Shown here piece by piece: positions 8,726-48,237 of a stretch of 64,000 bases of DNA (within the stretch, counting starts at the first letter, position 1; the number at the start of each line of letters is the position of its first letter). The translations under genes and the position numbers were made by a program. The notes under the pieces are model-generated. The model was not told where the DNA came from. It worked only from the letters and a program-made list of their open reading frames with translations, and ran no database searches. Origin of the DNA: Patescibacteria group bacterium (GTDB taxonomy: Bacteria; Patescibacteriota; Minisyncoccia; Minisyncoccales; PEYH01); the NCBI GenBank assembly GCA_018817645.1, contig JAHITK010000014.1, positions 9,989-73,988 of the forward strand. Reading direction: 5' to 3'.

Positions 8726-8734
8726 GCCTTTCAA

Positions 8735-8797: not shown

Positions 8798-8799
8798 AT

Positions 8800-10026
8800 T
8801 TATTCGTACCTTAACGCCTCAATAGGATTAAGCGAGGCGGCACGTCTGGCAGGATAGTATCCGAAAATAATTCCGATGGAGGCCGAGACCCCAAAAGCCA
8901 AAGCAATTGACCAGCCCGCAACATTAGTGCTGATGCCGGCGAATTTCTGAATTCCAAAAGAAATAAGCCATCCGACAATAATCCCGATAATCCCGCCCAT
9001 AAAAGTAAGCATTGTGGCTTCGGCTAAAAATTGCATACTGATGTCTCTGTTTTTGGCGCCAATCGCCTTGCGAAGCCCGATTTCGCGCGTTCTTTCCGTA
9101 ACCGTAGTAAGCATCATATTCATAATGCCAATGCCTCCGACAATCAAAGATATTCCGGCAATCGCCCCTAAAAAGATGGTTAAAGTTCCGGTTACGGAAG
9201 TCATAGTGTTCAAAATATCGGCCTGATTCATTATGGAAAAATCGGCCAAAGCAGGGTCGGCAATATTATGGCGGACTAAAAGCAAAGTGGTTATTTCTTC
9301 TTGCGCCACGGTCATATATTTCTCGTCGCTCACCTGAACATTTATAGTGGTGACATAGTTATTGCCCGACAAAAACTTTTGGGCGGTAGAAATCGGCACA
9401 AAAATAATGTCATCCTGGCTGCCGCCAAAACCCGTCCCGCCCTTGCTTTCGGTAACGCCGATGACCGTGAATTCAATCTTATTTATTTTGATTTTTCTCC
9501 CAATCGGGTCCGCTCCTTCTCCGAATAAATCAGATGCCGTAGTCGGCCCTAAAACCGCCACTTTTGCCGTGCTTTTTATATCCTGTTCCGAAATAAAAGA
9601 ACCGCTGTTGATAGTAAAATTTTTGACTCCGGCATATTGCGGAACCGTTCCGAGCACCGAAGTATTGGTGTTTGTCCCTTTGGCGGTTACTTGATACCTG
9701 GTAGAAACCTCCGGCGCTACCGCGTCTATATGAGAAATTTCTTGCAATATCGCATCAGCGTCATCTCCCGTAAGGGTCTGGGCCGAGCCCCGGCCTATAC
9801 TGATTTGCACCCGGTTTCCGCCCTGAACTCCGGGATAGACCACTAGCAGATTTGAACCGATTGACTGGATGTTGGATTTAATATCCGCTTCCGCCCCCTG
9901 ACCGATAGATATCAAAGCCACCACCGAACCGATGCCGATAACAATACCTAAAACCGTCAGCACAGTTCTGGCTTTATTAGCGAGAATGGCAGAAATCGTT
10001 TCTTCAAATAAATCGCTTAAAAGCAT
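8800..10026 (-). CDS. ABC transporter permease, MacB/FtsX family
   Basis: 408 aa. N-terminal TM, large periplasmic domain, C-terminal FtsX-type 3-TM bundle (TREIGLRKAIGAKNRDI). Confidence 0.85.
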   Translation of the reverse strand: MLLSDLFEETISAILANKARTVLTVLGIVIGIGSVVALISIGQGAEADIKSNIQSIGSNLLVVYPGVQGGNRVQISIGRGSAQTLTGDDADAILQEISHIDAVAPEVSTRYQVTAKGTNTNTSVLGTVPQYAGVKNFTINSGSFISEQDIKSTAKVAVLGPTTASDLFGEGADPIGRKIKINKIEFTVIGVTESKGGTGFGGSQDDIIFVPISTAQKFLSGNNYVTTINVQVSDEKYMTVAQEEITTLLLVRHNIADPALADFSIMNQADILNTMTSVTGTLTIFLGAIAGISLIVGGIGIMNMMLTTVTERTREIGLRKAIGAKNRDISMQFLAEATMLTFMGGIIGIIVGWLISFGIQKFAGISTNVAGWSIALAFGVSASIGIIFGYYPARRAASLNPIEALRYE

Positions 10027-10775: not shown

Positions 10776-10920
10776 CTGCCGAGACCTGCCGAGATCAGAA
10801 TCCTGCCGAGATCAGAATCCTGCCGAGATCAGAATCCTGCCGAGATCATTTCTCGGCAACTTTTTCTCGGCAACTTTGCCGAGAAATGATCCAACTTTGC
10901 CGAGAAATGATCTCGGCAGG
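10776..10920. repeat. Array of GCCGAGA / TCTCGGC half-sites (set 1)
   Basis: CTGCCGAGATCAGAATC x3 in tandem, plus palindromes GCCGAGA-TCATT-TCTCGGC and GCCGAGA-AATGA-TCTCGGC. About 10 half-sites in 145 bp. Confidence 0.85.
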
Positions 10921-10942: not shown

Positions 10943-12736
10943 TTAACGCATTATTCTCATCATCTCTCCTCCCCCTGCGCCGGCTGAAAAACCATTGGAT
11001 GTTCCGGTGCTTGAATTATTAGAGGAAGAAGCAGAGGTCTGGATAATCACCTCATCTCCTTCGTTAAGGCCACTGGTAATTTCTGTCATTGTGTCGTTAG
11101 AAAGCCCCGCCTCCACCGCTTTCCGGCTGATTGTTCCGTCCGAAGACATAATTTCAACATACTGCTGCTCCCCTTGATATTTAACGGCGGAATTTGGAAC
11201 CAGAAGCACTCCCTGTTTGATGTTTGTCATAATCTCCGCCGAAATGCTCATATTCGGCTTTATTTTATCCTCCTGCGTATCCAGGGCTATTTTCACATCA
11301 TAACTCACTACGCCTTGGCTTACTGTCCCCAAGGTGTCAATATCCGCCACTTCTCCGGTAAGAGTCATCTCTTCAATGGCGTCAAGCGTAATGGTGGCTT
11401 TCTGGCCTAATGCCAACTGACTTACATCCACTTCGTTAAGAGTAATTTCGGCTAATTTTTGTTTGGTGATAATGGACGCCAAAACGGTTCCCGAAGAAAC
11501 GGATTGTCCTTTTGACGCATTGGCTTCAATTATTATTCCGTCAAACGGAGCCCTTACATAACAATTATCCAGCGTCTTTTTAGCGTCGGTTAAAGCGTCT
11601 TTCTTCTGTTGAACCGCAATTTCTTTGGCTCTGATTTCCAGAGCATCCGCTCCCGCTTTAAGATTTTCCAAACTCAACTCTTTTTCCTTAATGCTTCTCT
11701 CTGCCGACACAATCGTGTCTTTGGCGCTTTGAATGCTGCGTTGAACCGATAAAAGAGTAGAAAGATGGCTATTGACTTTTGAGATATATGACTTCAGTTC
11801 TGTCTGATAAGCGGTTACATCGGAGAAAATCCTCAGTCCTTTTTTGGTGCGGAAATCCACCCAATAGTCAAGCATATTTATCTCGCTTTTTATTGTTTCG
11901 GACATTGCCCGAATGGTTTGAATCGTTTCGTCTAATAAAGCGTCAATCGTCTCCTGGTCAGAAAGGCGGTTGGCTGCCCTATAACTGCTCAGATTATCAT
12001 CATATTTCTGGCGAACGGCAGAATATGCTTCCTCCGCTTTATCGGTAAATGTCAGGAATTCCGTTCTTTCGTCAATATATTGAGAGGGAATAGAATTAAT
12101 TAAGCCGTGAACATTATCGTTCCCACCGGATACATCGGGTTCGTTATCCGCTAATTCCTGGCCATATAAGACATTCTCTGTGTCTGTAATGATTGTCGGC
12201 AAATCAAGGAAGACGTTTGCCACATCATTAAAACCGTCTTCGTAAGCATTCAGAATATTTTCTTCATCCTTGGGAATGGATTCTTTGGTGGACAATAAAT
12301 CATTTTCCGCTTTTAACAATGTCAATTCATCCGGAGGATTTGACAGCTCTTGCAGGTCTAATTTTGCCGTTTCTAATGATGTTTCCGCGTCCCGCACCGC
12401 TTTTTCAGCGTCGCTGGTGTCAATTTTAAAAAGCAAAGTTCCGGCTTTGACCTCATCGCCGTTTTTAACGCTTACAGAGACTATGTCGCCTGAAACCCGG
12501 GGCTTGATGTCCGCTTGGTTGGAAACCGCTATCTGGCCGGTCCCGCTTACGGTGGTGATAAGAGTCCCTTTTTCCACAATGGCGGTAGTATAACTTATCT
12601 CCCCTTGATTTTGCGAACTCATAGTTCTGATTCCAAAATAACCCGCTAAAACAAGGATGGCGATTATGATGATGGCAATAAACTTATGCCTCATCATCCA
12701 CTTATACAAGCTCTTAGCCCTAAAAAATATTTTCAT
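10943..12736 (-). CDS. HlyD/MacA-type periplasmic adaptor (membrane fusion protein)
   Basis: N-terminal TM, long coiled-coil hairpin, beta-barrel C-domain, operon partner of the ABC/FtsX genes. ATG at 12736 chosen (track start 12787 is GTG); the start is uncertain. Confidence 0.8.
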   Translation of the reverse strand: MKIFFRAKSLYKWMMRHKFIAIIIIAILVLAGYFGIRTMSSQNQGEISYTTAIVEKGTLITTVSGTGQIAVSNQADIKPRVSGDIVSVSVKNGDEVKAGTLLFKIDTSDAEKAVRDAETSLETAKLDLQELSNPPDELTLLKAENDLLSTKESIPKDEENILNAYEDGFNDVANVFLDLPTIITDTENVLYGQELADNEPDVSGGNDNVHGLINSIPSQYIDERTEFLTFTDKAEEAYSAVRQKYDDNLSSYRAANRLSDQETIDALLDETIQTIRAMSETIKSEINMLDYWVDFRTKKGLRIFSDVTAYQTELKSYISKVNSHLSTLLSVQRSIQSAKDTIVSAERSIKEKELSLENLKAGADALEIRAKEIAVQQKKDALTDAKKTLDNCYVRAPFDGIIIEANASKGQSVSSGTVLASIITKQKLAEITLNEVDVSQLALGQKATITLDAIEEMTLTGEVADIDTLGTVSQGVVSYDVKIALDTQEDKIKPNMSISAEIMTNIKQGVLLVPNSAVKYQGEQQYVEIMSSDGTISRKAVEAGLSNDTMTEITSGLNEGDEVIIQTSASSSNNSSTGTSNGFSAGAGGGEMMRIMR

Positions 12737-12857
12737 AAAAAAATTATTAAAGATTAAAAAGAGATATTTCTTGCTGAAATATCCCACACTTTATTACTAC
12801 AACAATTACTACAACAAAAATCAAATTTTGTTTCATTTTCTCAACCTGTCTGTAAAC

Positions 12858-12962
12858 TGCCGAGATCGTTTCTCGGCGGTTTCTCGTCTCGGCAGTTTCT
12901 CGGCGCTTCTCGGCGCTCTATGGCTAATTGCCGGGATTGCCGAGATCGTTTCTCGGCGGTTT
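12858..12962. repeat. Array of GCCGAGA / TCTCGGC half-sites (set 2)
   Basis: TGCCGAGATCGTTTCTCGGCGGTT occurs twice (12858 and 12939), with extra TCTCGGC half-sites between. The right copy encodes the last residues (PPRNDLG) of the 12924-13709 ORF. Confidence 0.85.
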
Positions 12963-13709
12963 GCGGTTGTCAAACATAGGGAAAAAGAGATCCCTGTCTT
13001 CCTCTATTATGCGAACGCCAAAAGCGTTAACAGAAGAATCTTTTTTATCTCCCATAATCATTATTAAATCCCCTTCTTCTATCTCTTGATTTTTGGGCAG
13101 AATAGTTTGCGGAGAAACAAGAACCTCAAAAATCTCGCCCTTTTCATTGCTTATCGTAAGCCCTTGCTCGCCAACGGCAGACACCTCTCCGATATGGACA
13201 TTGGGAAGCGCTTGCAAGGCGCGTTCCCGGTAAAATGACCCGATAATAGGTATTCTGCCTTCTGCGGCCCCTCTAAACAATTGAGGATGAATGACTGTAT
13301 GCGAGACAACCAATCCGATTATGGAGACGAACAGCAAAATCCCGAGCACGGAATAAACCAAGGGCCTTCTATAAACAAAGGAAAATTTCCTGGCTAAAAT
13401 TTCCAAAATAACCACCACTGCCAATGCGAAAATTAACCAATGCCATGGGAAACGCGCGAAAAAAAGCCCCATCCCCCGCGCTCCGAATCCGGGCGCGTAC
13501 CAAAGGCCGGTGGCTCGTATCTTAAACATTACAAAACTAAAAACAAAAGCGGCAAAGGCAAAAAAGAGTATCGTCCCCAAGATGAAAAATGCGGTTTTCA
13601 AAATAAACAGCAACTTCGGCCTCATCAATAATTCTTTTCCCCTGATTCTTTTCAAAATCCGCTCTTTTATATTATTTTTCAAAGAATTGCTATTATGGTT
13701 GTTGTCCAT
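12924..13709 (-). CDS. Membrane protein, candidate anti-sigma factor
   Basis: Overlaps the upstream ECF sigma gene by 17 nt. Several TM helices then a soluble C-domain. No recognisable family motif. Confidence 0.5.
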   Translation of the reverse strand: MDNNHNSNSLKNNIKERILKRIRGKELLMRPKLLFILKTAFFILGTILFFAFAAFVFSFVMFKIRATGLWYAPGFGARGMGLFFARFPWHWLIFALAVVVILEILARKFSFVYRRPLVYSVLGILLFVSIIGLVVSHTVIHPQLFRGAAEGRIPIIGSFYRERALQALPNVHIGEVSAVGEQGLTISNEKGEIFEVLVSPQTILPKNQEIEEGDLIMIMGDKKDSSVNAFGVRIIEEDRDLFFPMFDNRKPPRNDLGNPGN

Positions 13710-14256
13710 ATATTTTATTATAAATAGTTTTTAACTTTTCTCTGCCTCGACTCAGGCGCACACCGATAGTGGAAATCGGCAACTGCAAGATGTCCGCAAT
13801 CTCCTGATAACTCAATTCCTCTAAGTAATAAAAGATAATCACTTCCCGATATTTCATCTCTAACCGGTTAAGACATTTTTCTATTATGGTTCGCATCTCT
13901 TGATAATTCACCTCCCTGTCGGTTTCGTTGTCGCGAAGTCGAATAGAGTGCGGGAGGAAAACATCAAAATTAAATGATGAAAAAAATCTCCTTTTTCTCA
14001 GGTGGTTGACCAACTCGTTGTGGGCAATCCGGTAAAGCCAAGAAGAAAATTTTCTTTTAATGTCAAAACTTTGAATGTTGACATAGGCCTTGATAAAAAC
14101 AGTTTGGATTATATCGTCAGTGTCTTCCTTGTTTGAAAGAAATTTTCGCGCGTAACGCCTGATTTTCTCCTCGTATCTTTCAATCAAAACGCCAAAAAAA
14201 TCAGTTCTGCCTGATTGAACCAGATGCACAATTTCTTCATCGCTCTTCTCCGACAT
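13693..14256 (-). CDS. RNA polymerase sigma-70 family (ECF-type) sigma factor
   Basis: Region 2 (DIIQTVFIKAY...WLYRIAHN) and region 4 HTH (LSYQEIADILQLPISTIGVRLSRGREKL). 187 aa. Confidence 0.85.
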   Translation of the reverse strand: MSEKSDEEIVHLVQSGRTDFFGVLIERYEEKIRRYARKFLSNKEDTDDIIQTVFIKAYVNIQSFDIKRKFSSWLYRIAHNELVNHLRKRRFFSSFNFDVFLPHSIRLRDNETDREVNYQEMRTIIEKCLNRLEMKYREVIIFYYLEELSYQEIADILQLPISTIGVRLSRGREKLKTIYNKIYGQQP

Positions 14257-15059: not shown

Positions 15060-15639
15060 TCTTAAAAATTTTGGCGATTAAATAAAATTCTCTACTATAT
15101 TTTCTTACCGCGCTCGGACGATACGATTTAACAAAATTAAATAATCTTTTTATTTCTTTTAAAAACTCTTCCGTTCCCTCTCCTTCAAATGTCTTGCAAA
15201 CAAAAATCCCTCTTGCCTTCAATGATTGTTTAGCGATATCTAAAGCGGTTTTGGCCAGCTCTAATGATTTTGCTGTATCAACAAAATGAATGCCCGAAGT
15301 GCCCGGCGCCGCATCAGAAACAATCGCATCAAACCGTTCGCTGAAACTGCCGACAAGCTCTCTAATATCACCCTTGATAAACTTCATATTATCCTTAAGC
15401 GAAATTTTCAAATCCACCACATCAACACCTGTCACTCTGCCCTTTTTGCCGATTTTCCCGCTGAGATAAATCATCCAGGAACCGGGGGCGCACCCGATAT
15501 CCAATACCAAATCGCCCCGCTTGATGAGCCGATATTTTTTATCTATCTCCTGTAATTTATAGACAGAACGAGCCGGATAATTTTCTTCTTTGGCTTTTTT
15601 GAAATAAAAATCCTGCCGTGTGTTTTTCGCCTTCTTCAT
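15052..15639 (-). CDS. rlmE: 23S rRNA U2552 2'-O-methyltransferase (RlmE/FtsJ)
   Basis: RSVYKLQEIDKKY...VLDIGCAPGSW...VVSDAAP are FtsJ-family motifs. Confidence 0.85.
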   Translation of the reverse strand: MKKAKNTRQDFYFKKAKEENYPARSVYKLQEIDKKYRLIKRGDLVLDIGCAPGSWMIYLSGKIGKKGRVTGVDVVDLKISLKDNMKFIKGDIRELVGSFSERFDAIVSDAAPGTSGIHFVDTAKSLELAKTALDIAKQSLKARGIFVCKTFEGEGTEEFLKEIKRLFNFVKSYRPSAVRKYSREFYLIAKIFKNE

Positions 15640-16055
15640 TTTAGATTTTTGATATAAGCCATAATGAATTTTTCAATGGCAGCCACTGTTTCCTCTTTAA
15701 ATTTGGGGCTGCTTTCAGCGATCCAAAGAGCAAAATTATATAACTCTTTATTATCCGCTATCAACCATTTTTTGTTTTTATGCAGAAAAACAAATAAAGT
15801 AGTTATGGCGATTCTTTTGTTGCCATTCTGAAAAGGATGATTTTTTATCATCAAATAAAAAAGAATGGCCGCCTTGCCAATAAGGCCGCTATAAAGCGGT
15901 TTCTTTGCGAATGTCTGAAAAGGCACGCCCAGACAACTTTCTAAAATATTGGGCGATCTGGTTTCAAATTCCGGAATCGGCTCATTGGATGTCATCAACT
16001 GGCGAGCCAGCCGGAAAGCGATATATTCAACTTCTTTAATGGACAATATTTTCAT
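15636..16055 (-). CDS. doc: Doc-family (Fic fold) toxin
   Basis: Fic/Doc motif HPFQNGNKRIA. 139 aa. 1-nt overlap with the upstream HTH gene. Confidence 0.8.
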   Translation of the reverse strand: MKILSIKEVEYIAFRLARQLMTSNEPIPEFETRSPNILESCLGVPFQTFAKKPLYSGLIGKAAILFYLMIKNHPFQNGNKRIAITTLFVFLHKNKKWLIADNKELYNFALWIAESSPKFKEETVAAIEKFIMAYIKNLK

Positions 16056-16309
16056 TATGTTTCCCCTAACATTCTTAAAGTTTCTCCATATTCTTTAACT
16101 ATTTTTCTGACCGCTTTATCAACTTCTGACTTTTGCTCCCCTGTGAGTTCTTTGCCTAAAATTCCGTATAAATCTTTTTTATCAATAGCAAAATTACGGC
16201 CTATTTTAACCGCCTCTATTGTCCCCTTTTTAATCTTTTTATAAACCGCTATCCTGCTTATCCCGAGCAATTTTGCCAGTTCAGTGGTTGAGATAAAATT
16301 TTTATCCAT
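16055..16309 (-). CDS. Excisionase/MerR-type HTH protein, candidate antitoxin of Doc
   Basis: ISTTELAKLLGISRIAVYKKIKKGTI helix-turn-helix. 84 aa. Coupled to doc. Confidence 0.65.
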   Translation of the reverse strand: MDKNFISTTELAKLLGISRIAVYKKIKKGTIEAVKIGRNFAIDKKDLYGILGKELTGEQKSEVDKAVRKIVKEYGETLRMLGET

Positions 16310-18129: not shown

Positions 18130-18337
18130 TGGCTCAACTTCAAAAACCCTGACAAAGCAAGATAAAAAATAGTACACGTCCCTATTTCGTCAAATCATCC
18201 CTGGAGAAAATTCACAATTAACTCGAAACCTGAAGTTTCTATTTCCTTAAAAACCTGACATTTCTAAATCCTTTTGACATATTCAGAGAAATACTTGACA
18301 AGTATTCTGTGTTTGATAATATGATAGTATTACTACG

Positions 18338-18378
18338 AAAAAGACCCTATTAAGGCTCGTCCTTAATGGGGTCTTTTT
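18338..18378. terminator. Strong bidirectional intrinsic terminator
   Basis: AAAAAGACCCTATTAAGG-CTCGT-CCTTAATGGGGTCTTTTT. 13-bp stem flanked by A-run and T-run. Confidence 0.75.
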
Positions 18379-18458
18379 CATTTCTTATCTTTAAGATAGA
18401 GCGTTGGTCATTGATATAGGATATTTTGGCGCCTGTTCTTTTCAAAAGTATTGAGCAC

Positions 18459-18551
18459 TTTTCCTTAGGTGCTGGCGATAATATGCCTAATAATTTATCT
18501 TTCTCATGTAAAAGAAAAAAATAGAAGAAAAAATAGAGTTGACCCCATTTT
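18459..18551. repeat. Dispersed ~85-bp repeat (copy 1) ending in AAAAAATAGAGTTGACCCCATTTT
   Basis: Matches 22168-22247 base for base, except for a 13-nt internal duplication. Confidence 0.85.
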
Positions 18552-18605
18552 TGACATTTTTGACCCCATTTTTGATGACCATTTTTGACCCCATTTTTGA
18601 TTTTC
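18539..18605. repeat. Iteron-like array of TTGAC(CC)CATTTTT units
   Basis: Reads TTGACCCCATTT TTGACATTTT TGACCCCATTTT TGATGACCATTT TTGACCCCATTTT TGATTTTCATTTTTT. Spacing is 10-13 bp. Confidence 0.7.
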
Positions 18606-18633
18606 ATTTTTTCTAGCGGGATAGTCTTTTTAT

Positions 18634-19881
18634 TTACGGCAGATTCACAGAACGATCTGTGATTGATTTCTCGGCACAAGAGAGTGCATCTTCTTCTCGC
18701 GGACACTCTTCTGAAAAATAATATTTTGTTGCCTTAAAATTTAAAATCCCTAATTTTTCATCTAAACTTGTAATTTCGTAATTTGTATCTTCTTCCTCTA
18801 ATAATGTGCTTTCTCCTCCCGAAACAAGATTCTTAAAATAAATAGCAGCATCATTAGAAGGTCCGGGCATCGAATAATGCGGGGTTTTATCCCCTTCAGC
18901 GACATAAACAACTTTCCCAAAAGAGTCATAGAAATGGGCACTGGAATTTGCTATCCAATCAGATTGCTTAGTTTTGAACGATAAAATTTGATATCCAGGA
19001 TCGACACTTCCTCCGCCCGCTCCCGGAGACCCCTTGCAAGTATCCAAAATAACCCCGCTGTCGTCTTTGACTATCGCATAAGGGAGCAGTAATGCCATCC
19101 AATTGCTTCCTCCTTCGACTTCCACGTCTTTTATCAAAGTTGACATTGATAGATCCTTGTCATAAATAACTAATCTTACTAACTGATTCTCCCAATATTT
19201 CATTTCCTCGCCACCCGAATTAAGATATGCTCTCAATATTTTATTACTATTATGAAATGGAATCGATAAGATATGATAGAAGCCAGATTGCGGAGTGTCG
19301 ACAGGATAATCTCCTTCTCCGTTATCATATTGATTTGGGAACCTAAACGGATTTTCTTTTTCCATAACTGGACAGGGGCAATATCTATTCCAATAATCAA
19401 AAATCCAATCCACGTCAGCCATAATCGTCTGGCTGCTTCTTTTACAACTATAGACGCAATGATAATAAAATATACTATCGTCCTCTATGCTTTGGAGAGA
19501 GCAATCATTAAGGTCTACCCCATTATCCTCTATATATTTAGAAGTTCCTTTATCATTAAAAGCGGCGGTGCAGGCGGCTATCTTTTCATCTTCTGTGGGA
19601 TTCAGCGGAAGATTATCTTTGATAATAGAAAGGGGAAATTCTATTGTCTTCTCCGCGCCCGCGCCTTGAGGTGTGCTAGTTCCATCTGTGGTCGTGGCGG
19701 AAGGCATAGATGTGGGGCTCGACGTAGGCATATTTGTTAAAACTGGCTCCATCTCAATTGATTTATTTTCACCTAAATACCAGGCCACTGCTCCGATAAT
19801 TATTGCTAACAAAACGACTATAAAAAAAGCGATAGGAATAGAGGTCCCTTTATTAAGGCATGATTTAATGTCTTTAAACAT
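18634..19881 (-). CDS. Hypothetical membrane-anchored extracellular protein
   Basis: 415 aa. N-terminal TM (IAFFIVVLLAIIIGAVAWYL), S/T/P linker, Cys-containing globular region. Confidence 0.65.
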   Translation of the reverse strand: MFKDIKSCLNKGTSIPIAFFIVVLLAIIIGAVAWYLGENKSIEMEPVLTNMPTSSPTSMPSATTTDGTSTPQGAGAEKTIEFPLSIIKDNLPLNPTEDEKIAACTAAFNDKGTSKYIEDNGVDLNDCSLQSIEDDSIFYYHCVYSCKRSSQTIMADVDWIFDYWNRYCPCPVMEKENPFRFPNQYDNGEGDYPVDTPQSGFYHILSIPFHNSNKILRAYLNSGGEEMKYWENQLVRLVIYDKDLSMSTLIKDVEVEGGSNWMALLLPYAIVKDDSGVILDTCKGSPGAGGGSVDPGYQILSFKTKQSDWIANSSAHFYDSFGKVVYVAEGDKTPHYSMPGPSNDAAIYFKNLVSGGESTLLEEEDTNYEITSLDEKLGILNFKATKYYFSEECPREEDALSCAEKSITDRSVNLP

Positions 19882-20035: not shown

Positions 20036-20044
20036 CAGGGCTTC

Positions 20045-20087
20045 TCGGTCGCACATGCCTGCCTGTGCTGAGCTTGTCGAAGTGTTG
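20045..20087. repeat. 43-bp direct repeat, left copy (island boundary)
   Basis: TCGGTCGCACATGCCTGCCTGTGCTGAGCTTGTCGAAGTGTTG is identical to 23949-23991. Confidence 0.9.
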
Positions 20088-20201: not shown

Positions 20202-21254
20202 TCACTTTACCGCGTAATTCATAGCAGCAAATTCATACTGACTAATAAAAATTCTTTTAAGGGGCGAGAGAGAGTTAATCTCATAAAATACCAGCATTGC
20301 TTCGCGATATTCATTTTCGTCTACGCTCCGGTACGAAAGAGGGGCAAGGCCATGAGAAATTAGTAAAGCGTTGGTCATTAGACGTGCTGTTCGTTTATTA
20401 CCATCTTCAAAGGGTTGAATATAGCTAATTCCAATAAGGGCGAGTAGTGCTTTGGCGTAAGGCGTATTTAGCGTTGAGATAACCTTTGAAAGTTTTTTTA
20501 CCGCTTCTTCAATTTGATATCCATTATCCAATGGTTGATATTTCGAACCCACCACTCCAACCGGTTTTTTCCGCAAACCCAAATCAACGCTTAGATCTTT
20601 AACTAAAACTGCATGAAGTTTCTCTATGTTTACTCGTGTAAGATCGCGGAAAAGCGACAAATTTTGGCGGATGAAAACAAAGGCCTCTTTGTGGTTTAAA
20701 ATCATTCGCGCTTCTTTTTTATCATGTCCTTCTGCTTCCTTATTATTTAGAATCAATCTTTCGGTATCAAGAAGCGTATATGTATTGCCCTCAATTTTTG
20801 ATGACTTCCAGGCAAGCTCAATAACCAACCGCTCCAGCTCTTTTTTTTGAACAACTGCGGATGTGTTTTTTGTCCTCTTTTCATATTCAGCCGTTGCGGC
20901 GTTGAGAACTTTTAATTCATTCTCGTCGAAAATATCTCTTGGCACAGATTGGAATAGTTCAAAGTTATATCTGCTTAATCCGAATCTTCTGTCTGGTTCA
21001 ACAGCGCAATATTCCTTTGCATCAATAGGGGCAAATAAACGGCCATTGACGCTTACCCGGTAAGTTATAGATGGCCCGGAGCCAGAAACGACAAGCAGGC
21101 CGGATGCCGCCATACCAGAAAGCGCCCGTTTAATAGTAACAAGAGAAACCTTATCGCCTTCCTCTGTTATTTTTGAGTGAACAGCAGAGGATGATAGAGC
21201 GCCGTTTTTAAGAATTATTAAAAGTATTTTCGATTGTTTTTGATTCATTCCCAT
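20202..21254 (-). CDS. Fic family protein with N-terminal wHTH; catalytic His replaced by Gln
   Basis: 350 aa. Fic motif region reads QPFEDGNKRTARL, where the canonical form is HxFx(D/E)GNGRxxR. Confidence 0.8.
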   Translation of the reverse strand: MGMNQKQSKILLIILKNGALSSSAVHSKITEEGDKVSLVTIKRALSGMAASGLLVVSGSGPSITYRVSVNGRLFAPIDAKEYCAVEPDRRFGLSRYNFELFQSVPRDIFDENELKVLNAATAEYEKRTKNTSAVVQKKELERLVIELAWKSSKIEGNTYTLLDTERLILNNKEAEGHDKKEARMILNHKEAFVFIRQNLSLFRDLTRVNIEKLHAVLVKDLSVDLGLRKKPVGVVGSKYQPLDNGYQIEEAVKKLSKVISTLNTPYAKALLALIGISYIQPFEDGNKRTARLMTNALLISHGLAPLSYRSVDENEYREAMLVFYEINSLSPLKRIFISQYEFAAMNYAVK

Positions 21255-21372: not shown

Positions 21373-22131
21373 TTATGCTATTCCTTGGCCGTTCAATTCT
21401 CGGCCGAATTTTGTTTTCATAAAACGCAAAAACATTTTCAGAGATGATAGGATTTCATTCTCGTCCCGACCATCAAAAAGAACATGGTTTTGCCACCAAC
21501 GCGGGAACTCATATGTCGCGAACTCCAACCTAATTGCCTCAAAGCTTAAAAAACCGACCCAGAAAACTCTTTCAAAGAAGATTTCAACAACTCTATAGTG
21601 TTCTTCCGCTTCCTTTTTGGATAGTTTCTCTTCTTGAGATAAAAATTCTTTATAACAAGGCAAAATTTCTTTTTCCACCTGCCGCTTAAACGGCTTTTGG
21701 CGTCTTCCCATTTCTTCCAGCATCGCTGTATAATCGTCATAAGGCATTTCGCTACCTCCGACGATAACTTTCGGCATACGGCTATCACTTAGCTTTTTGG
21801 AGCTGGATTCTTTTTTTATTTCTACTGATATCATCTGCTGCGGGGATTTACCGCCTAACGACCGGTGAGGAAAGGCATTCCACGCATCAGTGCTAACTCT
21901 CAAAATTTCATCAAATTTTTTAGTTTTGATATCAGTGATATCTTTAATATCTTTAAAACAGTGAAAAAACTTTTTTTGAAAATTATTACTGGCCTCGCTC
22001 GCTGAATCGCCATAATCATTAAAAATCCAGTCCTTCACTTTGGCAACACTCAAAACACCACTAAGTTTATACTGGGATATAATCTTTTGCAGTCTTTCTC
22101 TTACATCTTTTTCAGCCAATTTTTTGAACAT
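21373..22131 (-). CDS. Hypothetical protein
   Basis: 252-aa ORF with no motif I can name. Preceded by the dispersed 85-bp repeat. Confidence 0.55.
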   Translation of the reverse strand: MFKKLAEKDVRERLQKIISQYKLSGVLSVAKVKDWIFNDYGDSASEASNNFQKKFFHCFKDIKDITDIKTKKFDEILRVSTDAWNAFPHRSLGGKSPQQMISVEIKKESSSKKLSDSRMPKVIVGGSEMPYDDYTAMLEEMGRRQKPFKRQVEKEILPCYKEFLSQEEKLSKKEAEEHYRVVEIFFERVFWVGFLSFEAIRLEFATYEFPRWWQNHVLFDGRDENEILSSLKMFLRFMKTKFGRELNGQGIA

Positions 22132-22140: not shown

Positions 22141-22247
22141 AAAAATAGATTTGACACCAATTTTTATTTTTCCTTAGGTGCTGGCGATAATATGCCTAAT
22201 AATTTATCTTTCTCATGTAAAAGAAAAAATAGAGTTGACCCCATTTT
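22141..22247. repeat. Dispersed ~85-bp repeat (copy 2) flanked by a degenerate and a perfect TAGAGTTGACCCCATTTT motif
   Basis: 22168-22247 matches 18459-18551. 22141-22165 (AAAAATAGATTTGACACCAATTTTT) is a degenerate motif copy. Confidence 0.85.
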
Positions 22248-22268
22248 CCCCATTTTCCCCTTATCTGC

Positions 22269-22295
22269 CCTCCCCCTCGCAAGGCGATGGGGAGG
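22269..22295. repeat. GC hairpin CCTCCCCCTCGC/GCGATGGGGAGG
   Basis: 12-bp stem with one mismatch. Related to the perfect hairpin at 22868-22897. Confidence 0.7.
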
Positions 22296-22729: not shown

Positions 22730-22867
22730 TTTTTTAAATTGCTTAATAGTATTTTTAGTATATTTATTATACCAAACAAGTTCTAACGTTGTATAGTATC
22801 TGAAGCTGTCTATCGAGTCTATCGAGATTGAACCTCGATAGTTCTCTTGACCTCCCCCTCCTAAAAT

Positions 22868-22897
22868 CCCTCCCCCTCGCCAAGGCGAGGGGGAGGG
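22868..22897. repeat. Perfect 14-bp GC hairpin CCCTCCCCCTCGCC-AA-GGCGAGGGGGAGGG
   Basis: Read directly from the sequence. Same orientation and sequence family as 22269-22295. Confidence 0.85.
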
Positions 22898-22988
22898 ATA
22901 AAGGGAAGGGGAGAAGAAGGAAGAAGAAGGGAGGAGGAAAAAGAAAAAGGGATTTAGGAGGGGGAGGATTTAGGTGGGGGAGAAAAAT
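22884..22988 (+). repeat. Polypurine (G/A) tract of ~100 nt
   Basis: GGCGAGGGGGAGGGATAAAGGGAAGGGGAGAAGAAGGAAGAAGAAGGGAGGAGGAAAAAGAAAAAGGGATTTAGGAGGGGGAGGATTTAGGTGGGGGAG. Only a handful of pyrimidines. Confidence 0.8.
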
Positions 22989-23090
22989 TTATTTCAGTTC
23001 GTCGCCGGGAAGTTCGGATTTGGGGAAAACCAAGCTAGGTTTTTTGAAAACCGCAAAAAGGCGAGTAGAAAAAAGAGAAAAAAATAGAGA

Positions 23091-23114
23091 AAAAAATAGA
23101 GTTGACCCCATTTT
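23091..23114. repeat. AAAAAATAGAGTTGACCCCATTTT motif (copy 3)
   Basis: The identical 24-mer occurs at 18528-18551 and 22224-22247. A 1-mismatch copy is at 63443-63466. Confidence 0.85.
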
Positions 23115-23159
23115 CCACATTTTCCATTTTCCCTGGCTGAACATCATTTACTTATTAAA

Positions 23160-23924: not shown

Positions 23925-23948
23925 AAAGTTAGAGTATTTTGACCCCTT

Positions 23949-23991
23949 TCGGTCGCACATGCCTGCCTGTGCTGAGCTTGTCGAAGTGTTG
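23949..23991. repeat. 43-bp direct repeat, right copy (abuts tRNA 3' end)
   Basis: Identical to 20045-20087. Its last 2-3 nt overlap the 3' end of the tRNA-like gene. Confidence 0.9.
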
Positions 23992-24059
23992 CGGGGCTTG
24001 GATTCGGACCAAGATAGCCGCCTCCAAGGGGCGGTGTCCTACCGTTAGACGACCCCGCA
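23989..24059 (-). tRNA. Atypical tRNA-Gln(UUG)-like gene (C33 and C55)
   Basis: Reads TGCGGGG TC GTCT AACGGTA GGAC A CCGCC CCTTGGA GGCGG CTAT CTTGG TCCGAAT CCAAG CCCCGCA A. U1:A72 as in bacterial tRNA-Gln, but the anticodon loop has C at 33 and the T-loop reads TCC instead of TTC. Confidence 0.55.
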
Positions 24060-24077
24060 GTAAAAATCTTTCTACTA

Positions 24078-25190
24078 CTAATCGCCGGTGATTTCAAGGA
24101 TTGCCAGTTCTAGGGGCAATTGGGGAATCGGCGAATATCTTATTTTATTCTGCGCTTCTAAAAACGCTTTGAGCGCCTGACGGATTTCGGGCTTCGGAAA
24201 TTTAAGGGCTTGTTTTTTAAGCTCTCCCTTTATTTCCTGCGTGAGATTGCGGAAAATCGGATTTTCCAGGTCAGGGCTTATTTTTAAAATCAATATCTGG
24301 CGCAGATATTCAACAATCGCTTTTGCCAATTCCAGCGGATCCAACCCTTTTTCAATTATTTCATTCAAAAAACCGACTGCTGCGCCTGATTTTTTCTCAA
24401 AAATCAAATCAATTAATTTGGCAATTAACCCCACATCAATCACCCCCAATAATATCTTTACATCTTCCTCGGTAATCTCCTTTTTGTCGTCCTGGTCGGA
24501 AACCTTGCTGAAACTCAAAATTTGGTCAAGCAAAACTTCAGCATTTCTGACAGCGCCATCGGCATTCATAGCGATAAGGTCCAGGGCCGGCTTGCTAATT
24601 TTGATTTTTTCTTTCTTAACAATCATTTCAAGCTTTTTCATTATTTCCAAAACAGAGAGTTTACGGAAATCAAATCTTTGGCATCTTGAACTGATTGTCG
24701 GAATCATTTTGTGGGCTTCGGTGGTGGCTAAAACAAACACGGTGAAAGAAGGGGGCTCTTCAAGCATTTTTAACAAGGCATTAGCCGCGTCCTTTGAAAG
24801 TTGATGGCTTTCATCAATAATAAAAACCTTGTATTTCAAGCGAGTCGGCGCAAATCTTATGCCTTCTTTTAACTCCCTGATGTCATCTATTCCCCTGTTT
24901 GAAGCGGCGTCTATTTCTACCAAATCAATCGCCCGGCCGCTGTTTATCTCCATACACGACTGGCACTTGTTGCACGGCTCAAAGCCCTGCAAGTTCTCGC
25001 AGTTTATGGCCTTGGCCAAAAGACGGGCAATGGTCGTTTTGCCGGACCCTTTGGGACCGGAAAACAAATAACAATGGGACAACAAGTCATTGGTTATCTC
25101 ATTGGTGATTGTCTGAACAATATGTTCCTGCCCCACCACTTCGGAAAAGCTTTTCGGCCGGTATTTGCGATATAAAACAAGATTAGCCAT
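24078..25190 (-). CDS. dnaX: DNA polymerase III subunit gamma/tau
   Basis: YRPKSFSEVVGQEH, Walker A GPKGSGKTT, Zn module CxxCxxC, Walker B IIDESH, SRC motif (SRCQRF). Confidence 0.9.
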   Translation of the reverse strand: MANLVLYRKYRPKSFSEVVGQEHIVQTITNEITNDLLSHCYLFSGPKGSGKTTIARLLAKAINCENLQGFEPCNKCQSCMEINSGRAIDLVEIDAASNRGIDDIRELKEGIRFAPTRLKYKVFIIDESHQLSKDAANALLKMLEEPPSFTVFVLATTEAHKMIPTISSRCQRFDFRKLSVLEIMKKLEMIVKKEKIKISKPALDLIAMNADGAVRNAEVLLDQILSFSKVSDQDDKKEITEEDVKILLGVIDVGLIAKLIDLIFEKKSGAAVGFLNEIIEKGLDPLELAKAIVEYLRQILILKISPDLENPIFRNLTQEIKGELKKQALKFPKPEIRQALKAFLEAQNKIRYSPIPQLPLELAILEITGD

Positions 25191-25243
25191 TATTTAATCG
25201 TTAATCATTTGTCGTTAATTACTTATCACTGATCATTTGCTGA

Positions 25244-25873
25244 TTATTTTTTGAAGATGAAAAATTTGTAGCCGAGGAAGTTCCACATAAATCCGATTAA
25301 AACTCCTACAAAAGGCGCGATTATTCCTGCCAATACATTGCCGGAAACCGCTGCGCTTGAACTAGCCAATCGGACAATTAAAGAAGCGATTCCCACATTG
25401 AGCAGGGCCCCGATTCCGGTGATGAAATAAAATCCGGCGAATTCTTTCCCTTTTGCCTTTCCTCCTTTTTCAAAAGTCCAGGATCTATTCCAGAAATAGC
25501 TGTTAGTCGCTGCCGCGGTGAAGGATAAAAATTTGAAAAACGCATACAAGGCGATTGTTTGTCCAGCATCTATCTTGCTTATCCACAAAAGAAAACCGAG
25601 CACCCCGAAATCAATAAAAGTGTTTAAAGCTCCGACCACCACAAATCTGGCAAGCTGCCAAATCACCTTAATCTTTTTCGCCAATTTGTCTGCTATGAAT
25701 AATCCAGCCAAAACCAAGAACGGCAGAATAATCGGCAAGAAGAAGAAATAAGCGAATTTGAATCCCTGCCATTTACTCAAAATATCCGGCTCAAGATTTT
25801 TAAGGGTTGGCAATGCCAAAAGCCCGATTAAAAAACCGATAACAAGGCCTAACGTGACGTCTCTTTTAAGCAT
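25244..25873 (-). CDS. GtrA-family membrane protein
   Basis: FVVVGALNTFIDFGVLGFLL...NRSWTF are GtrA-like motifs, with two extra N-terminal TM helices. Confidence 0.65.
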   Translation of the reverse strand: MLKRDVTLGLVIGFLIGLLALPTLKNLEPDILSKWQGFKFAYFFFLPIILPFLVLAGLFIADKLAKKIKVIWQLARFVVVGALNTFIDFGVLGFLLWISKIDAGQTIALYAFFKFLSFTAAATNSYFWNRSWTFEKGGKAKGKEFAGFYFITGIGALLNVGIASLIVRLASSSAAVSGNVLAGIIAPFVGVLIGFMWNFLGYKFFIFKK

Positions 25874-25953
25874 AGCTTTAAAATTAATTATTCTTTCATA
25901 TTATCAGAAACCCTGATTATTGCCAAGTCAGGGAATTTTGATCGCTGGTCAGG

Positions 25954-25980
25954 CCATTACGAGGCCCGGCCTCGTAATGG
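25954..25980. repeat. Palindromic element CCATTACGAGGCC-C-GGCCTCGTAATGG
   Basis: 13-bp perfect arms. Family members at 45361, 45425 and about 46026. Confidence 0.85.
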
Positions 25981-26052
25981 ATTATTGTGGTGGGTTTGAG
26001 TAAAAGGCGAAAATATATTAGAATAAACTAACCCTAATACTTAAACAAACGG

Positions 26053-27456
26053 ATGATTAAGGTATATAATTCCCTGACCAGAAAGAAAGAGATATTTAAG
26101 CCCTTGAAAGACAAAAAGGTGGCTTTTTATGTGTGCGGGCCAACGGTTTACGGGCCTGGACATATCGGGCACGCGCGGACATATATTGCTTTTGATATTA
26201 TCAGAAGATATTTAGAGCATAAAGGCTATAAAGTGAAATATGTGATGAATATTACTGACATTCACGACGACATTATTACAACGGCCCAAATGCAGAAAAC
26301 AGACATTTTTGTCTTGGGCAATAAATACACAAAACTTTTTTTGGAGGACCAAAAAAAACTTGGCATCAAGCCAGCGACTGTTTATCCAAGGGTAACAGAA
26401 CATATAAAGGAGATTATAAAATTCATTCAGGAGTTGGAGAAAAGGGGTTTTGCCTATGAGAAAAATGACTCTGTATATTTTGATGTTTCCAAGTTCAAGG
26501 ATTACGGCAAGCTTTCAGGTATCAAGGTCCAAAAAACAAAGACAGGCACAAGAGTGGAAACAGATAAATACGAGCGCGACGAAGCAGTTGATTTCGTGCT
26601 GTGGAAAAAAGCCAAAAAGGGCGAGCCATTTTGGGAGAGTCCTTGGGGGCAAGGCAGGCCGGGCTGGCATATTGAATGCTCGGTGATGATTAAAAAACTT
26701 CTGGGCGAACAGATTGACATCCACGCCGGCGCCCGGGATTTATTGTTCCCTCACCATGAAAACGAGATTGCCCAAACAGAGTCAATTGCCAAGAAAAAAC
26801 CCTTTGTAAAATACTGGCTGCACGGCGGTCTTTTGATGATAGAAGGGCAAAAAATGTCCAAGTCGCTCGACAATTTCATCACCATAGAAAAGGTTTTGGA
26901 AAAATGGGAGCCGAGGGTGCTAAGAATGTTTGTCGCTTCCAGCCATTACCAAAGCGAATTAAATTGGTCGGAGAAAAATCTTTTGCAGGCGAAGAAAAAT
27001 CTGGAGAGGATGGAGGAACTTGTAAACAAACTCAAAACTCAAAACGCAAAACGCAAAACAACAACTCAAAAATCAAAACAGATTGAGGCCATAATGCGGA
27101 AAGCAAGAAAGGGGCTTAAAGGGGTGATGGAGGATAATTTCAACACGCCGGAGGCGCTGGCAGGGCTTTTTGAAATGATAAAAGCGATAAATCCCCTGCT
27201 TGATAAAAATGAAATTGATGAAAAGCAGGCGAAAAAGATTTTGGAATTTCTGAAAGAGATTGATAAAATTTTTAACTTTATTTTTCCGTATAAAAAAGAA
27301 AGTGTTCCCGCTCACGTCAAGGAATTGGTCAAAAAACGAAAGGAATACAGAAGAAGCAAGCAATGGCAAAAGGCAGATGAAATCAGAAAACAAATTGAGC
27401 GATTAGGATTTGCGATAAAAGACACGGCCAACGGAACAGAAATAAAGAGGAAATGA
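26053..27456 (+). CDS. cysS: Cysteine--tRNA ligase
   Basis: HIGH motif (GHIGHAR), KMSKS (KMSKSLDN), Zn-binding C28/C209/H234 context. 467 aa. Confidence 0.95.
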   Translation: MIKVYNSLTRKKEIFKPLKDKKVAFYVCGPTVYGPGHIGHARTYIAFDIIRRYLEHKGYKVKYVMNITDIHDDIITTAQMQKTDIFVLGNKYTKLFLEDQKKLGIKPATVYPRVTEHIKEIIKFIQELEKRGFAYEKNDSVYFDVSKFKDYGKLSGIKVQKTKTGTRVETDKYERDEAVDFVLWKKAKKGEPFWESPWGQGRPGWHIECSVMIKKLLGEQIDIHAGARDLLFPHHENEIAQTESIAKKKPFVKYWLHGGLLMIEGQKMSKSLDNFITIEKVLEKWEPRVLRMFVASSHYQSELNWSEKNLLQAKKNLERMEELVNKLKTQNAKRKTTTQKSKQIEAIMRKARKGLKGVMEDNFNTPEALAGLFEMIKAINPLLDKNEIDEKQAKKILEFLKEIDKIFNFIFPYKKESVPAHVKELVKKRKEYRRSKQWQKADEIRKQIERLGFAIKDTANGTEIKRK

Positions 27457-27467
27457 TTTTATCCACA

Positions 27468-27504
27468 GACCAAAAATGTCCGCTATAGGCGGACATTTTT
27501 GGTC
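27468..27504 (+). terminator. Intrinsic terminator after cysS
   Basis: GACCAAAAATGTCCGC-TATAG-GCGGACATTTTTGGTC. Confidence 0.7.
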
Positions 27505-27539
27505 CCCTTGCCAAAACTTGGAATTTGATTAGAATAGAG

Positions 27540-28949
27540 ATGATGGCTGATTACTCAAAAAACAATCAATCCCTGCCGGATAAAACCCCGCCCCAAAATA
27601 TTGAAGCGGAGAAATCATTGTTGGGCAGTTTGATGATTGACAGAAACGCGATTATAAAAGTGGTGGATTTTTTACAGCCGCGCGATTTCTATAAAAATCA
27701 GCACCAGACAATCTATGAATCAATGCGCGACCTTTTTGACCGGAATGAAATAATCGACTTCTTGTCTTCATCGTCCCGCTTGCAGGAAAAAGGCAAATTA
27801 GAATCAATCGGCGGAAAGGCCTATCTTACCGAACTCATAAACTCCGTGCCTAATGCCATGCATGTTTTGGATTACGCCAAAATTGTCCAAAAAAAGAGAA
27901 TTTTAAGAGACCTTATCCAGACCTCTTATGAAATCGGCAGTATGGGATTTAATGAAGAAGAAGAAGTGGATGTTCTCCTGGATAGAGCGGAAAGCCAGAT
28001 ATTTAACATTGCCCAACGGTCACTTTCCCAGCAATTTACTCCGATAAAAAGCGAATTGGAAGGCGCTTTTGAGAGAATTGACAATCTTTCAAAGCACCGA
28101 GGCGCGCCCAGAGGAATTCCAACCGGATTTGTGGATTTGGACAAAATTCTTTCCGGTTTTCAGAAGTCCGACCTGGTAATTCTGGCGGCCCGTCCTTCAA
28201 TCGGTAAAAGCGGTTTGGCTTTAGATATCGCCCGCCATATCGGAGTCAATGAGAAAAAACCAGTCGGTGTATTCAGTTTGGAAATGTCTAAAGACCAAGT
28301 AATTGACCGCTTCATCGCCAGCCAGTCAAATGTTGACCTTTGGAAATTAAGAACCGGCCACCTTTCCGGAGAAGGACCGGAAAATGATTTTGAAAGAATC
28401 CAGCATGCCCTTGGGATGTTATCAGAAGCCCCCATTTTTATAGACGACACGGCCGGGATTAATATAATGCAGATGAGAGCCATGGCCAGACGATTGCAAG
28501 TCCAGCACGGCTTATCTTTATTGATTGTTGATTATCTCCAATTAATGGAGCCGAGAATGGCCAATATGCAGATGGTCCAACAGATGACGGAAATCTCCCG
28601 CTCTCTTAAGGGGTTAGCTAAGGAATTGGCAGTTCCAGTGCTGGCCTTATCTCAATTATCAAGAGCGGTTGAACAAAGAACTCCCGCCATCCCGAAATTA
28701 TCAGACCTTCGTGAAACCGGAGCATTAGAGCAAGATGCAGACGTGGTTTTGTTTATTTATCGCGAAGACAAATACCGGCAGGATACTGCCAGAAAGAATA
28801 TTGCCGATATTTTAATTGCCAAACACAGAAACGGCCCGGTTGGCAAGGTTGAATTATATTTTGACGAATCGAGAGCGAGTTTCCGAAATCTTGAGAAAAG
28901 AGAATTTGAGGGTCCGGAAGGAGTTGAATTGGAAGACCTCCTCCCCTGA
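27540..28949 (+). CDS. dnaB: Replicative DNA helicase DnaB
   Basis: PQNIEAEKSLLGSLM, Walker A ARPSIGKSG, Walker B LLIVDYLQLM. ATG at 27540 preferred over the TTG at 27525. Confidence 0.95.
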   Translation: MMADYSKNNQSLPDKTPPQNIEAEKSLLGSLMIDRNAIIKVVDFLQPRDFYKNQHQTIYESMRDLFDRNEIIDFLSSSSRLQEKGKLESIGGKAYLTELINSVPNAMHVLDYAKIVQKKRILRDLIQTSYEIGSMGFNEEEEVDVLLDRAESQIFNIAQRSLSQQFTPIKSELEGAFERIDNLSKHRGAPRGIPTGFVDLDKILSGFQKSDLVILAARPSIGKSGLALDIARHIGVNEKKPVGVFSLEMSKDQVIDRFIASQSNVDLWKLRTGHLSGEGPENDFERIQHALGMLSEAPIFIDDTAGINIMQMRAMARRLQVQHGLSLLIVDYLQLMEPRMANMQMVQQMTEISRSLKGLAKELAVPVLALSQLSRAVEQRTPAIPKLSDLRETGALEQDADVVLFIYREDKYRQDTARKNIADILIAKHRNGPVGKVELYFDESRASFRNLEKREFEGPEGVELEDLLP

Positions 28950-48212: not shown

Positions 48213-48237
48213 AAAATTATATTCCCTGAACGGATTT

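Follow-up and report, generated by a model that had tools for sequence, protein, structure and literature searches.

We report here on a 24-bp repeat, AAAAAATAGAGTTGRCCCCATTTT, that recurs in a 64,000-nucleotide stretch of DNA (contig JAHITK010000014.1 of assembly GCA_018817645.1, positions 9,989 to 73,988; hereafter the window), which is chromosomal DNA of a bacterium of the Candidate Phyla Radiation (CPR) resembling Nealsonbacteria. This 24-mer probably represents the terminal inverted repeat (TIR) of a TIRtron, and its copies in the window are solo TIRs, orphaned from the transposase gene. The motif is identical to TIRs flanking TIRYT transposase genes in other genomes, TIR sequence and transposase clade vary in concert, reiteration of the TIR end occurs family-wide, and the motif is unchanged across phyla. 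Read in this way, the repeat is a mobile-element footprint, and neither a replication nor a promoter signal. TIRtrons have been described as genes resembling those for REP-associated tyrosine transposases (RAYTs) that are flanked by long TIRs and not by repetitive extragenic palindromes (REPs); their enzymes are called TIRYTs, their TIR consensus is GGGGWSAS, and moderately abundant TIR families are found singly, as dimers or in groups (Di Nocera et al., 2013; PMC3733652). Most TIRYTs belong to subclass 2.1 of the TnpA-Y1 transposases (Quentin et al., 2018; PMC6006769), and the equivalent set has been named RAYT Group 1, which among RAYTs resembles insertion sequences (IS) most closely, undergoes horizontal transfer most readily, shows the most duplication and has about 12 copies of the flanking 16-mer (Bertels et al., 2017; PMC5581495).

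The 24-mer occurs exactly at 18528-18551, 22224-22247 and 23091-23114 of the window, always on the plus strand (copies 1 to 3), and a fourth plus-strand copy at 63443-63466 carries an A-to-G change (copy 4). The G-rich strand of the TIR, AAAATGGGGTCAACTCTATTTTTT, reads on the minus strand, and all copies are oriented as minus-strand features. A degenerate fifth copy, AATAGATTTGACACCAATTT (22141-22165), has three mismatches in the 20-mer core (22144-22163) and was recovered by profile search (nhmmer) with E = 0.014. When up to three mismatches are allowed, five copies were observed in the window versus 0 in shuffles, and no exact 24-mer is expected from dinucleotide shuffles (n = 100). A model of TIRtron left ends matches copy 1 with E = 4.6e-5 (nhmmer), and the sequence of copy 1 is the same as that of the TIRs flanking transposase genes with a Y1_Tnp domain at loci L017, L076, L080, L081 and L086 of other genomes. 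Copies 1 and 2 form the ends of a longer unit (18459-18551 and 22168-22247, 93 and 80 bp), the interiors of which (18459-18527 and 22168-22223, both minus strand) match fully except for a 13-nt insertion at 18515-18527 in copy 1, a duplicate of the inner arm of the motif. The inner boundary is exactly common to both units, which argues for one truncated or composite ancestral unit that was later copied; a 29-mer from the interior was found at these two unit positions only, among all loci collected. Copy 2 (22224-22260, nhmmer) comprises the TIR and its outer CCCCATTTT, repeated 2.4 times at 22239-22260 according to Tandem Repeats Finder (TRF); copy 3 (23069-23132) has a repeated inner arm at 23069-23101 and a repeated outer end at 23108-23132. 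A first-pass annotation of this DNA had described a dispersed family with the recurrences of the 24-mer and the degenerate copy, two units that differ only by a 13-nt internal duplication, a position of copy 2 immediately upstream of the open reading frame (ORF) 21373-22131, and a copy 4 that encodes the last codons of a gene, and each of these descriptions agrees with the sequence. A distance of 36 nt separates the end of copy 2 from the downstream ATG (22131) of a 252-amino-acid ORF on the minus strand to which no function was assigned, the interior of the unit lying directly upstream of this ORF and the degenerate copy 7 nt upstream of the same ATG, and copy 4 forms the last eight codons (ENGANSIF) and the TAA stop of ORF 63441-63977 (minus strand), a gene that is called in the source assembly. 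Neither a TIRYT gene nor a remnant of one was found in the 64-kb window, to which the search for a cognate gene extended, and all five copies are therefore solo TIRs.

Scanning one genome per species (596 Gb) with the 20-mer core revealed 72 exact loci in about 42 species-representative assemblies, while about two matches would be expected by chance according to our own estimate. The hosts are Nealsonbacteria, other Parcubacteria, metagenome-assembled genomes (MAGs) labelled Saccharibacteria, Dehalococcoidia/Chloroflexota and single MAGs of further groups; three MAGs labelled "Clostridia" hold 6-10 loci each. The flanks of these loci are unrelated, and the motif lies in intergenic DNA, in many cases right beside a stop codon. 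Clustering of the neighbouring ORFs showed one protein family directly attached to the motif, at four loci in different phyla. Its members have 232-233 amino acids and match Pfam Y1_Tnp (IS200-like) with E = 3e-15 to 4e-14 at L017, L029 and L076, where inverted copies of the motif stand on both sides of the gene. The left copy, AAAATGGGGTCAACTCTATTTT, is located about 30-40 nt before the start codon, at L076 with a promoter-like TGnTAAAAT in between, and the right copy contains the TAG stop of the transposase gene. At L076 a group of three further TIR copies (1447-1525) accompanies the gene-flanking pair, and inverted TIR dimers occur at L008, L014, L035, L068 and L071.

A total of 2618 homologues of the transposase was found at E <= 1e-10, many of them on contigs only about 1 kb long, with breaks at the repeats. 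Among 80 metagenomic homologues that were fetched (33-81% identity), 56 have flanking inverted repeats scoring >= 14, versus 0 of 240 shuffles. The repeat sequence shifts with the protein clade, and it does so at both ends together, giving GGGGTCAACTCTATTTT, GGTGTCAACTCTGGTTTT, GGGGTCACCTCTATT, GGGGACGGTTCTCTTTA and ATTGGGGTCAGATTCCAAT in the respective clades and, as examples of paired ends, GGGGTCACC.../...GGTGACCCC and GGTGTCAACTCTGG.../...CCAGAGTTGACACC. This co-variation is the strongest evidence that repeat and enzyme belong together. A case from a cultured organism is a homologue on a Pseudomonas aeruginosa plasmid, 36% identical in sequence, which is flanked by perfect 32-nt TIRs starting with AAAGGGGACAG. 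Transposases of Parcubacteria and Chloroflexota that share the same TIR sequence are 81% identical, which we take as direct evidence for recent gene flow between these two groups. A phage vector was discarded as a candidate, as the motif is absent from IMG/VR viral contigs, and PLSDB plasmids yielded only homologues of <=40% identity. Across all loci, solo TIRs far outnumber transposase genes, and in one sampled Nealsonbacteria species the transposase gene is present at a single conserved locus.

Alignment of the family shows that residues H60, H62 and Y120 are invariant, and motif comparison identified PNHIHL, VWQGRY and GLY[VI]ELNP in proteins of 229-249 (typically 232) amino acids. For subclass 2.1, NH[VYF]H, W[EQ] and YIELNP or Y[IV]HLNP have been described as signatures, with a median length of about 238 amino acids and a C-terminal domain like a helix-turn-helix (HTH) (PMC6006769). 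The family fits these signatures, with an I in NHIH where V, Y or F is listed. The NCBIfam model REP_Tyr_transpos gave 69.5 and 65.6 bits, below its cut-off of 80, and the NCBIfam IS200 model gave 20 bits, below its cut-off of 55. No C-terminal HTH (Bac_DnaA_C, HTH_23, HTH_28) was detected by Pfam at E <= 10, either in the C-terminal 112 amino acids or in whole proteins; a conserved C-terminal half exists, and its sole Pfam hit is a weak AT_hook at RGRPRK. This invariant C-terminal RGRP(K/R)(K/R), residues 226-228 of protein P0001, is encoded at or inside the right TIR (L078-L110). Some genes read on through the right TIR, which adds ...KNRVDPI to the protein. A search of the PDB with the family profile gave no match at the sequence level. 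The TIR core of the window's clade, GGGGTCAA, agrees with GGGGWSAS at 7 of 8 positions, having an A where an S is expected at the last one; among sister clades, the core GGGGTCAG is a full match and GGGGACGG occurs as well, and the Pseudomonas plasmid homologue has GGGGACAG.

We assign the element to the TIRtrons and its enzyme to the TIRYTs on account of the TIR-flanked Y1 gene, the motifs, the size and the dispersed TIRs. Like the published members, it has a single RAYT-like Y1 gene of the HUH type encoding about 235 amino acids, inverted repeats of 20-30 nt with a GGGG-W-S-A core, the gene promoter after the left TIR, a right TIR that overlaps the 3' end of the gene, additional TIRs as singles, dimers and groups, and a patchy distribution pointing to horizontal transfer. 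It differs from them in the last position of the core, in the AT-hook-like RGRP tail found in place of a detectable HTH, in its hosts (CPR/Patescibacteria, Chloroflexota and uncultured lineages, which are absent from the 2013-2018 surveys) and in a TIR that is base-identical across phyla and often tandemly reiterated in its outer half. In REP/REPIN-RAYT systems (TnpA-REP of E. coli and Pseudomonas), too, short extragenic repeats flank a single-copy Y1 gene in inverted orientation, are dispersed in intergenic DNA, often just past stop codons, and co-evolve with the enzyme, the substrate presumably being a single-stranded hairpin. However, the motif studied here lacks the GTAG or GTGG foot, forms a much weaker, A/T-rich hairpin, appears to have a lower copy number and has been transferred across phyla, whereas REP/RAYT pairs are mostly vertical; the enzymes, moreover, stay under the REP_Tyr_transpos cut-off. 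Lacking a GT[AG]G foot and folding into a weak hairpin only, the repeat is not a canonical REP. Nor is the element an IS200/IS605 member. With those elements (IS608, ISDra2) it would have in common the HUH Y1 chemistry and a strand-specific recognition of a hairpin in single-stranded lagging-strand DNA, and in the window and at several CPR loci cassettes are flanked by copies in the same orientation, like the left and right ends of IS608. In contrast, IS200/IS605 elements have no TIRs, a TnpA of about 150 amino acids with a Y...Q motif, subterminal hairpins and multiple near-identical copies, whereas a Y..LNP motif, 232 amino acids and 24-nt TIRs are found here. The kind of element is thus already known, and its presence in CPR and other uncultured lineages is new, as are the base-perfect TIR shared across phyla, the end reiteration, the AT-hook-like tail and the bracketing of cassettes by same-orientation TIRs.

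At three of the window copies the ends are tandemly reiterated, most strongly at 18539-18613 (minus strand), where the outer half of the TIR follows copy 1 as an array of three TTGACCCCATTT units, TTGACATTT, TTGATGACCATTT and TTGATTTTCATTTTTT. TRF delimits this array to 18539-18600, with a period of 12 and 5.3 copies or a period of 25, 2.7 copies and 90% matches; by eye, the units extend to about 18613 and amount to 5-6 reiterations of the TTGACCCCATTT-type outer half, in agreement with the number of units given by the first-pass annotation. The Logan assembly made from a different sequencing run (SRR6514274; locus L164) contains the array without a single base difference, and because this independent assembly is identical, the array is not an artefact of a single assembly. 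The L164 contig breaks inside a repeat unit, as is usual where short reads meet repeats. In other genomes, 115 distinct sites belong to the window's TIR clade; at 36 of them, one or more extra terminal heptamers lie outside the TIR at a distance of up to 45 nt, compared with 12 that have one inside; in total, the heptamer recurs 47 times outside and 14 times inside, while 9.8 would be expected from shuffles. Arrays comparable to that of the window are present at L045 and L084, and outer-end reiteration is seen in other TIR clades as well; the window array is therefore an extreme case of an end property of the whole family. In addition, copies 1 and 3 have a duplicated inner arm. An iteron-like nature, which had been attributed to the array earlier, is not supported, as each unit has 9-13 nt and corresponds to half a transposon end, and there is neither a rep gene nor an origin in the neighbourhood. 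Plasmid iterons are likewise short direct tandem repeats at about one helical turn; however, they measure 17-22 bp, are located beside a rep gene and a stretch of A/T-rich DNA for unwinding, and are specific for their replicon, none of which is the case here. The half-TIR arrays may have originated from replication slippage or from repeated abortive cleavage and ligation at the outer boundary of the element, and a contribution of slippage is favoured by the fact that this genome makes many unrelated T-tract arrays.

The G-rich strand of the TIR can be folded into AAAATGGGG-TCAA-CTCTATTTT, which includes two G-T pairs and has a predicted stability of -1.8 kcal/mol as DNA (z = -1.8). It folds slightly better than the C strand, and in other clades -4 to -5 kcal/mol are reached. 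A single consensus hairpin for all clades was considered and rejected, as loop length and register vary between clades, and for the same reason a register-tolerant permutation test was employed. In this test, the six bases 5' of the G run form 4.35 of 6 possible Watson-Crick pairs with the 3' arm, versus 3.90 ± 0.13 in the null, and the co-variation of the arms was reached by 1 of 2000 permutations (40 TIR types). In five of five window copies, the G strand of the TIR is situated on the G-rich strand of the chromosome, which is the lagging-strand template, and the same was found in 22 of 27 CPR loci. By analogy with the biochemistry of REP/RAYT (TnpA-REP) and IS200/IS605 (IS608) systems, a TIRYT encoded elsewhere in the genome might recognise the weak hairpin of the G-rich strand while the lagging-strand template is single-stranded, and the C-terminal RGRP(K/R) AT-hook-like tail might help by binding the flanking A/T runs. 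The enzyme would then cut and rejoin DNA at the outer boundary via a 5'-phosphotyrosine link, and cleavage followed by rejoining would seed solo TIR copies in trans. As the RNA of the TIR forms an 8-bp hairpin in minus-strand transcripts, REP-like side effects on mRNA are possible; by the same analogy, a small RNA hairpin containing G-U pairs could have minor effects on 3' or 5' untranslated regions (UTRs).

Several points weigh against a TIRtron origin of the window copies. The hairpin of the window's clade is thermodynamically weak, about half of the TIR types are no more self-complementary than shuffles, and the MAGs of Clostridia and Chloroflexi show no orientation bias. TRF also detected numerous unrelated 7-8-nt T-tract arrays in the window, so that general slippage may have contributed more to the local array than the transposase did. 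The cognate enzyme would have to be encoded outside the window, and no pair of an occupied and an empty site was found, as look-ups of the exact protein returned only the source contig and one Logan assembly, both from the same genome. For the 56 nt inside the duplicated unit, no detectable relation to TIRtron interiors was seen, either by local match or by profile search. We know of no TIRYT that has been studied biochemically, and recognition, cleavage and mobilisation are ascribed to this enzyme by analogy. Alternatively, the copies could be relics of several full-length TIRtrons that lost their gene by deletion, and not solo units spread in trans, the 80/93-bp unit being a truncated end duplicated by ordinary recombination. 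We regard this as unlikely. It would be in line with locus L026, which holds a decaying TIRtron with a 72-amino-acid Y1_Tnp remnant interrupted by TIR copies, with the IS-like character and frequent duplication of Group 1 RAYTs (PMC5581495), and with the beginning of the unit interior, which resembles TIRtron left ends (CTTT..., followed by an A/T-rich stretch similar to a -10 box) and has a local match to the start codon region at the right distance. However, this match, TATcGCCAGcACC-TAAGGA versus TATGGCCAGACCTTTAAGGA, was equalled by 329 of 1000 shuffles, and nhmmer alignments stop at the TIR, so that a decayed TIRtron promoter and start codon was dismissed as the identity of the interior. 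Copy 3 was also examined as the right end of a decayed gene, and this was discarded because tblastn gave E = 0.67 and hhalign aligned only nine TIR-encoded residues; no transposase gene remnant was found beside it by either program. In addition, the inner boundary is exactly identical in both units, and the excess of solo TIRs over genes, together with the single conserved gene locus in one Nealsonbacteria species, does not favour loss of the gene from many complete elements.

Two further explanations do without a transposon. A host cis-regulatory or structural element, either an operator or nucleoid-protein array or an RNA hairpin acting as terminator or stabiliser, maintained by selection and with the transposase genes merely adjacent, would account for intergenic copies that often abut stop codons or ribosome-binding sites, for several copies that stand 20-50 nt upstream of canonical TTGACA-17-TATAAT promoters and for the 8-bp hairpin of the minus-strand RNA, and such co-option has been documented for REPs (PMC3733652). 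It is nevertheless very improbable, as conservation of 20-24 nt at the base level across phyla with unrelated neighbours is unlike that of regulons, repeat and transposase clade co-vary, the repeat stands in inverted orientation on both sides of the transposase gene, the hairpin is weak, and Rfam reported nothing at any copy. The remaining explanation is that of the first-pass annotation, which proposed iteron-like binding sites, or TTGAC -35 boxes driving an orphan transcript of 150-200 nt from the gap at 18380-18630. The regular spacing of 9-13 bp, the fit of TTGAC to the -35 consensus and the strong terminator nearby speak for it, and we still give it hardly any credence: no plus-strand -10 box is found 16-18 nt after any TTGACC, the terminator lies upstream and not downstream of the array on the plus strand, there is no rep gene in what is a chromosomal neighbourhood, and the units are transposon-end halves that recur at TIR ends in other phyla. 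No sigma-70 site was detected on the plus strand in 18459-18620, 22224-22290 or 23091-23150, and the adjacent genes are on the minus strand. The sole promoter-like site in the unit, ATGAGA-18-TATTAT, is weak (9 of 12 matches) and located on the minus strand (18507-18478 and 22216-22187). A minus-strand promoter for an extracytoplasmic function (ECF) sigma factor, GTCAAC-N17-GTC, was also considered; it fits some Nealsonbacteria loci, and was rejected because the window copies are without GTC or CGTC at the right distance.

A more far-reaching proposal, to which we attach only a small probability, is that TIRs in the same orientation act as left and right ends of the IS608 type, between which the TIRYT would excise DNA and reinsert it, the two hairpins being on one and the same strand. 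In the window, the five same-orientation copies bracket Fic, unknown and membrane-protein segments, and single cassettes between direct TIR copies are found at L001 and L028. L025 is a contig of 1538 bp, binned as Woesearchaeota, the first and last 55 nt of which are identical, TIR included, with two toxin-antitoxin pairs in between; it may represent a circle, a tandem copy or a cassette bounded by two direct repeats that contain the TIR. The identity of the TIR across phyla is a further hint. If the proposal were true, an HUH-driven system would shuttle cassettes with toxin-antitoxin and defence genes among CPR bacteria and members of neighbouring phyla, and the half-TIR arrays would be scars of repeated cleavage and ligation.

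For annotation, the TIRtron assignment explains a puzzling repeat, guards against mis-annotation and means that the array is no origin, promoter or gene. It also extends the hosts of the TIRYT/TIRtron class, which has hardly been studied, to CPR/Patescibacteria and other uncultured subsurface lineages; earlier TIRYT surveys dealt with complete genomes and did not cover such organisms (PMC3733652, PMC6006769, PMC5581495). In practice, the TIRs mark accessory regions (Fic, MntA/HepT and other toxin-antitoxin pairs) and breaks of short-read assemblies. The reiteration of the outer half probably points to the site of enzyme action, providing a concrete TIRYT substrate for biochemistry. A literature search with the sequence string returned unrelated matches only.

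Genes of the window are nearly all on the minus strand, and the GC skew of the plus strand is negative except at 24001-28000, where cysS is on the plus strand; housekeeping neighbours include dnaX, cysS, dnaB and tRNAs. The window copies occupy intergenic or 3'-terminal sites among accessory genes, and the ORFs near the array encode a secreted protein, a Fic protein and membrane proteins. Copy 1 and the array are located between the stop codon at 18634 of the gene for a secreted-looking protein of 415 amino acids and a bidirectional intrinsic terminator at 18337-18379 (a 19-pair stem, then a T run), and likely belong to the 3' UTR of that gene. The earlier placement of copy 1 next to this terminator is thereby borne out, and the suspicion that ORF 18350-18706 across it is spurious is shared by us, as the ORF is repeat-encoded, has no Pfam or PADLOC hit and is not called in the source assembly. 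On the plus strand, a strong promoter-like site at 18295-18379 (TTGACA-16-TAATAT, with an upstream TG) runs into the terminator, so that a transcript would have at most about 45 nt. Two Fic/Doc-family genes lie within 5 kb, one at 15636-16309 (a Doc-like protein of 139 amino acids with an HTH_17 partner) and one at 20202-21254 (a SoFic-like protein of 350 amino acids), the latter between copies 1 and 2. Copy 3 comes after an amidase gene, copy 4 adjoins an MntA/HepT toxin-antitoxin pair (62417-63282), and an ECF sigma factor gene is present at 13693-14256.

Other repeats accompany those described above. An exact 43-nt repeat, caacacTTCGACAAGCTCAGCACAGGCAGGCatgtgcgaccga, occurs on the minus strand at 23948-23989 and 20044-20085, in these two copies only, of which one starts at the 3' end of tRNA-Gln (23988-24059) and the other is situated between the Fic and 415-amino-acid protein genes; it could be an att-like duplication bounding an island of 3.9 kb, or else serve in processing or as a terminator. 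A break of the Logan contig L164 falls within this 43-nt repeat. G/C-rich hairpins of the type CCCTCCCCCTCGCC-TTGG-CGAGGGGGAGGG adjoin TIR copies 2 and 3 at about 22265-22295 and 22865-22895, long purine/pyrimidine tracts occur close to these copies at 22900-22990, and similar small hairpins, CCTCCC...GGGAGG, are seen just inside the TIR at loci L034, L036, L040 and L072 of "Clostridia" MAGs. A second dispersed family consists of palindromic intergenic elements of 110-170 nt at 48059-48221, 56613-56740 and 57999-58125, with partial copies at 8716-8804 and 58573-58648. Its members are composed of 7-nt T-tract units (ATTTGAC or ATTTGGA and their complements), each member being located between tandem minus-strand genes, and the TTGACATTT unit of this family is also found within the TIR array at 18551-18559. 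In the intergenic gap at 57442-57590 the octamer TTAATTGT is repeated 18.5 times. Finally, CTGCCGAGATCA and TGATCTCGGCA arrays, with a perfect 17-mer repeated 3.8 times, are present at 10776-10920 and 12860-12960, on either side of a 614-amino-acid ORF (10943-12787, minus strand), and look like a separate operator-like or REP-like repeat.

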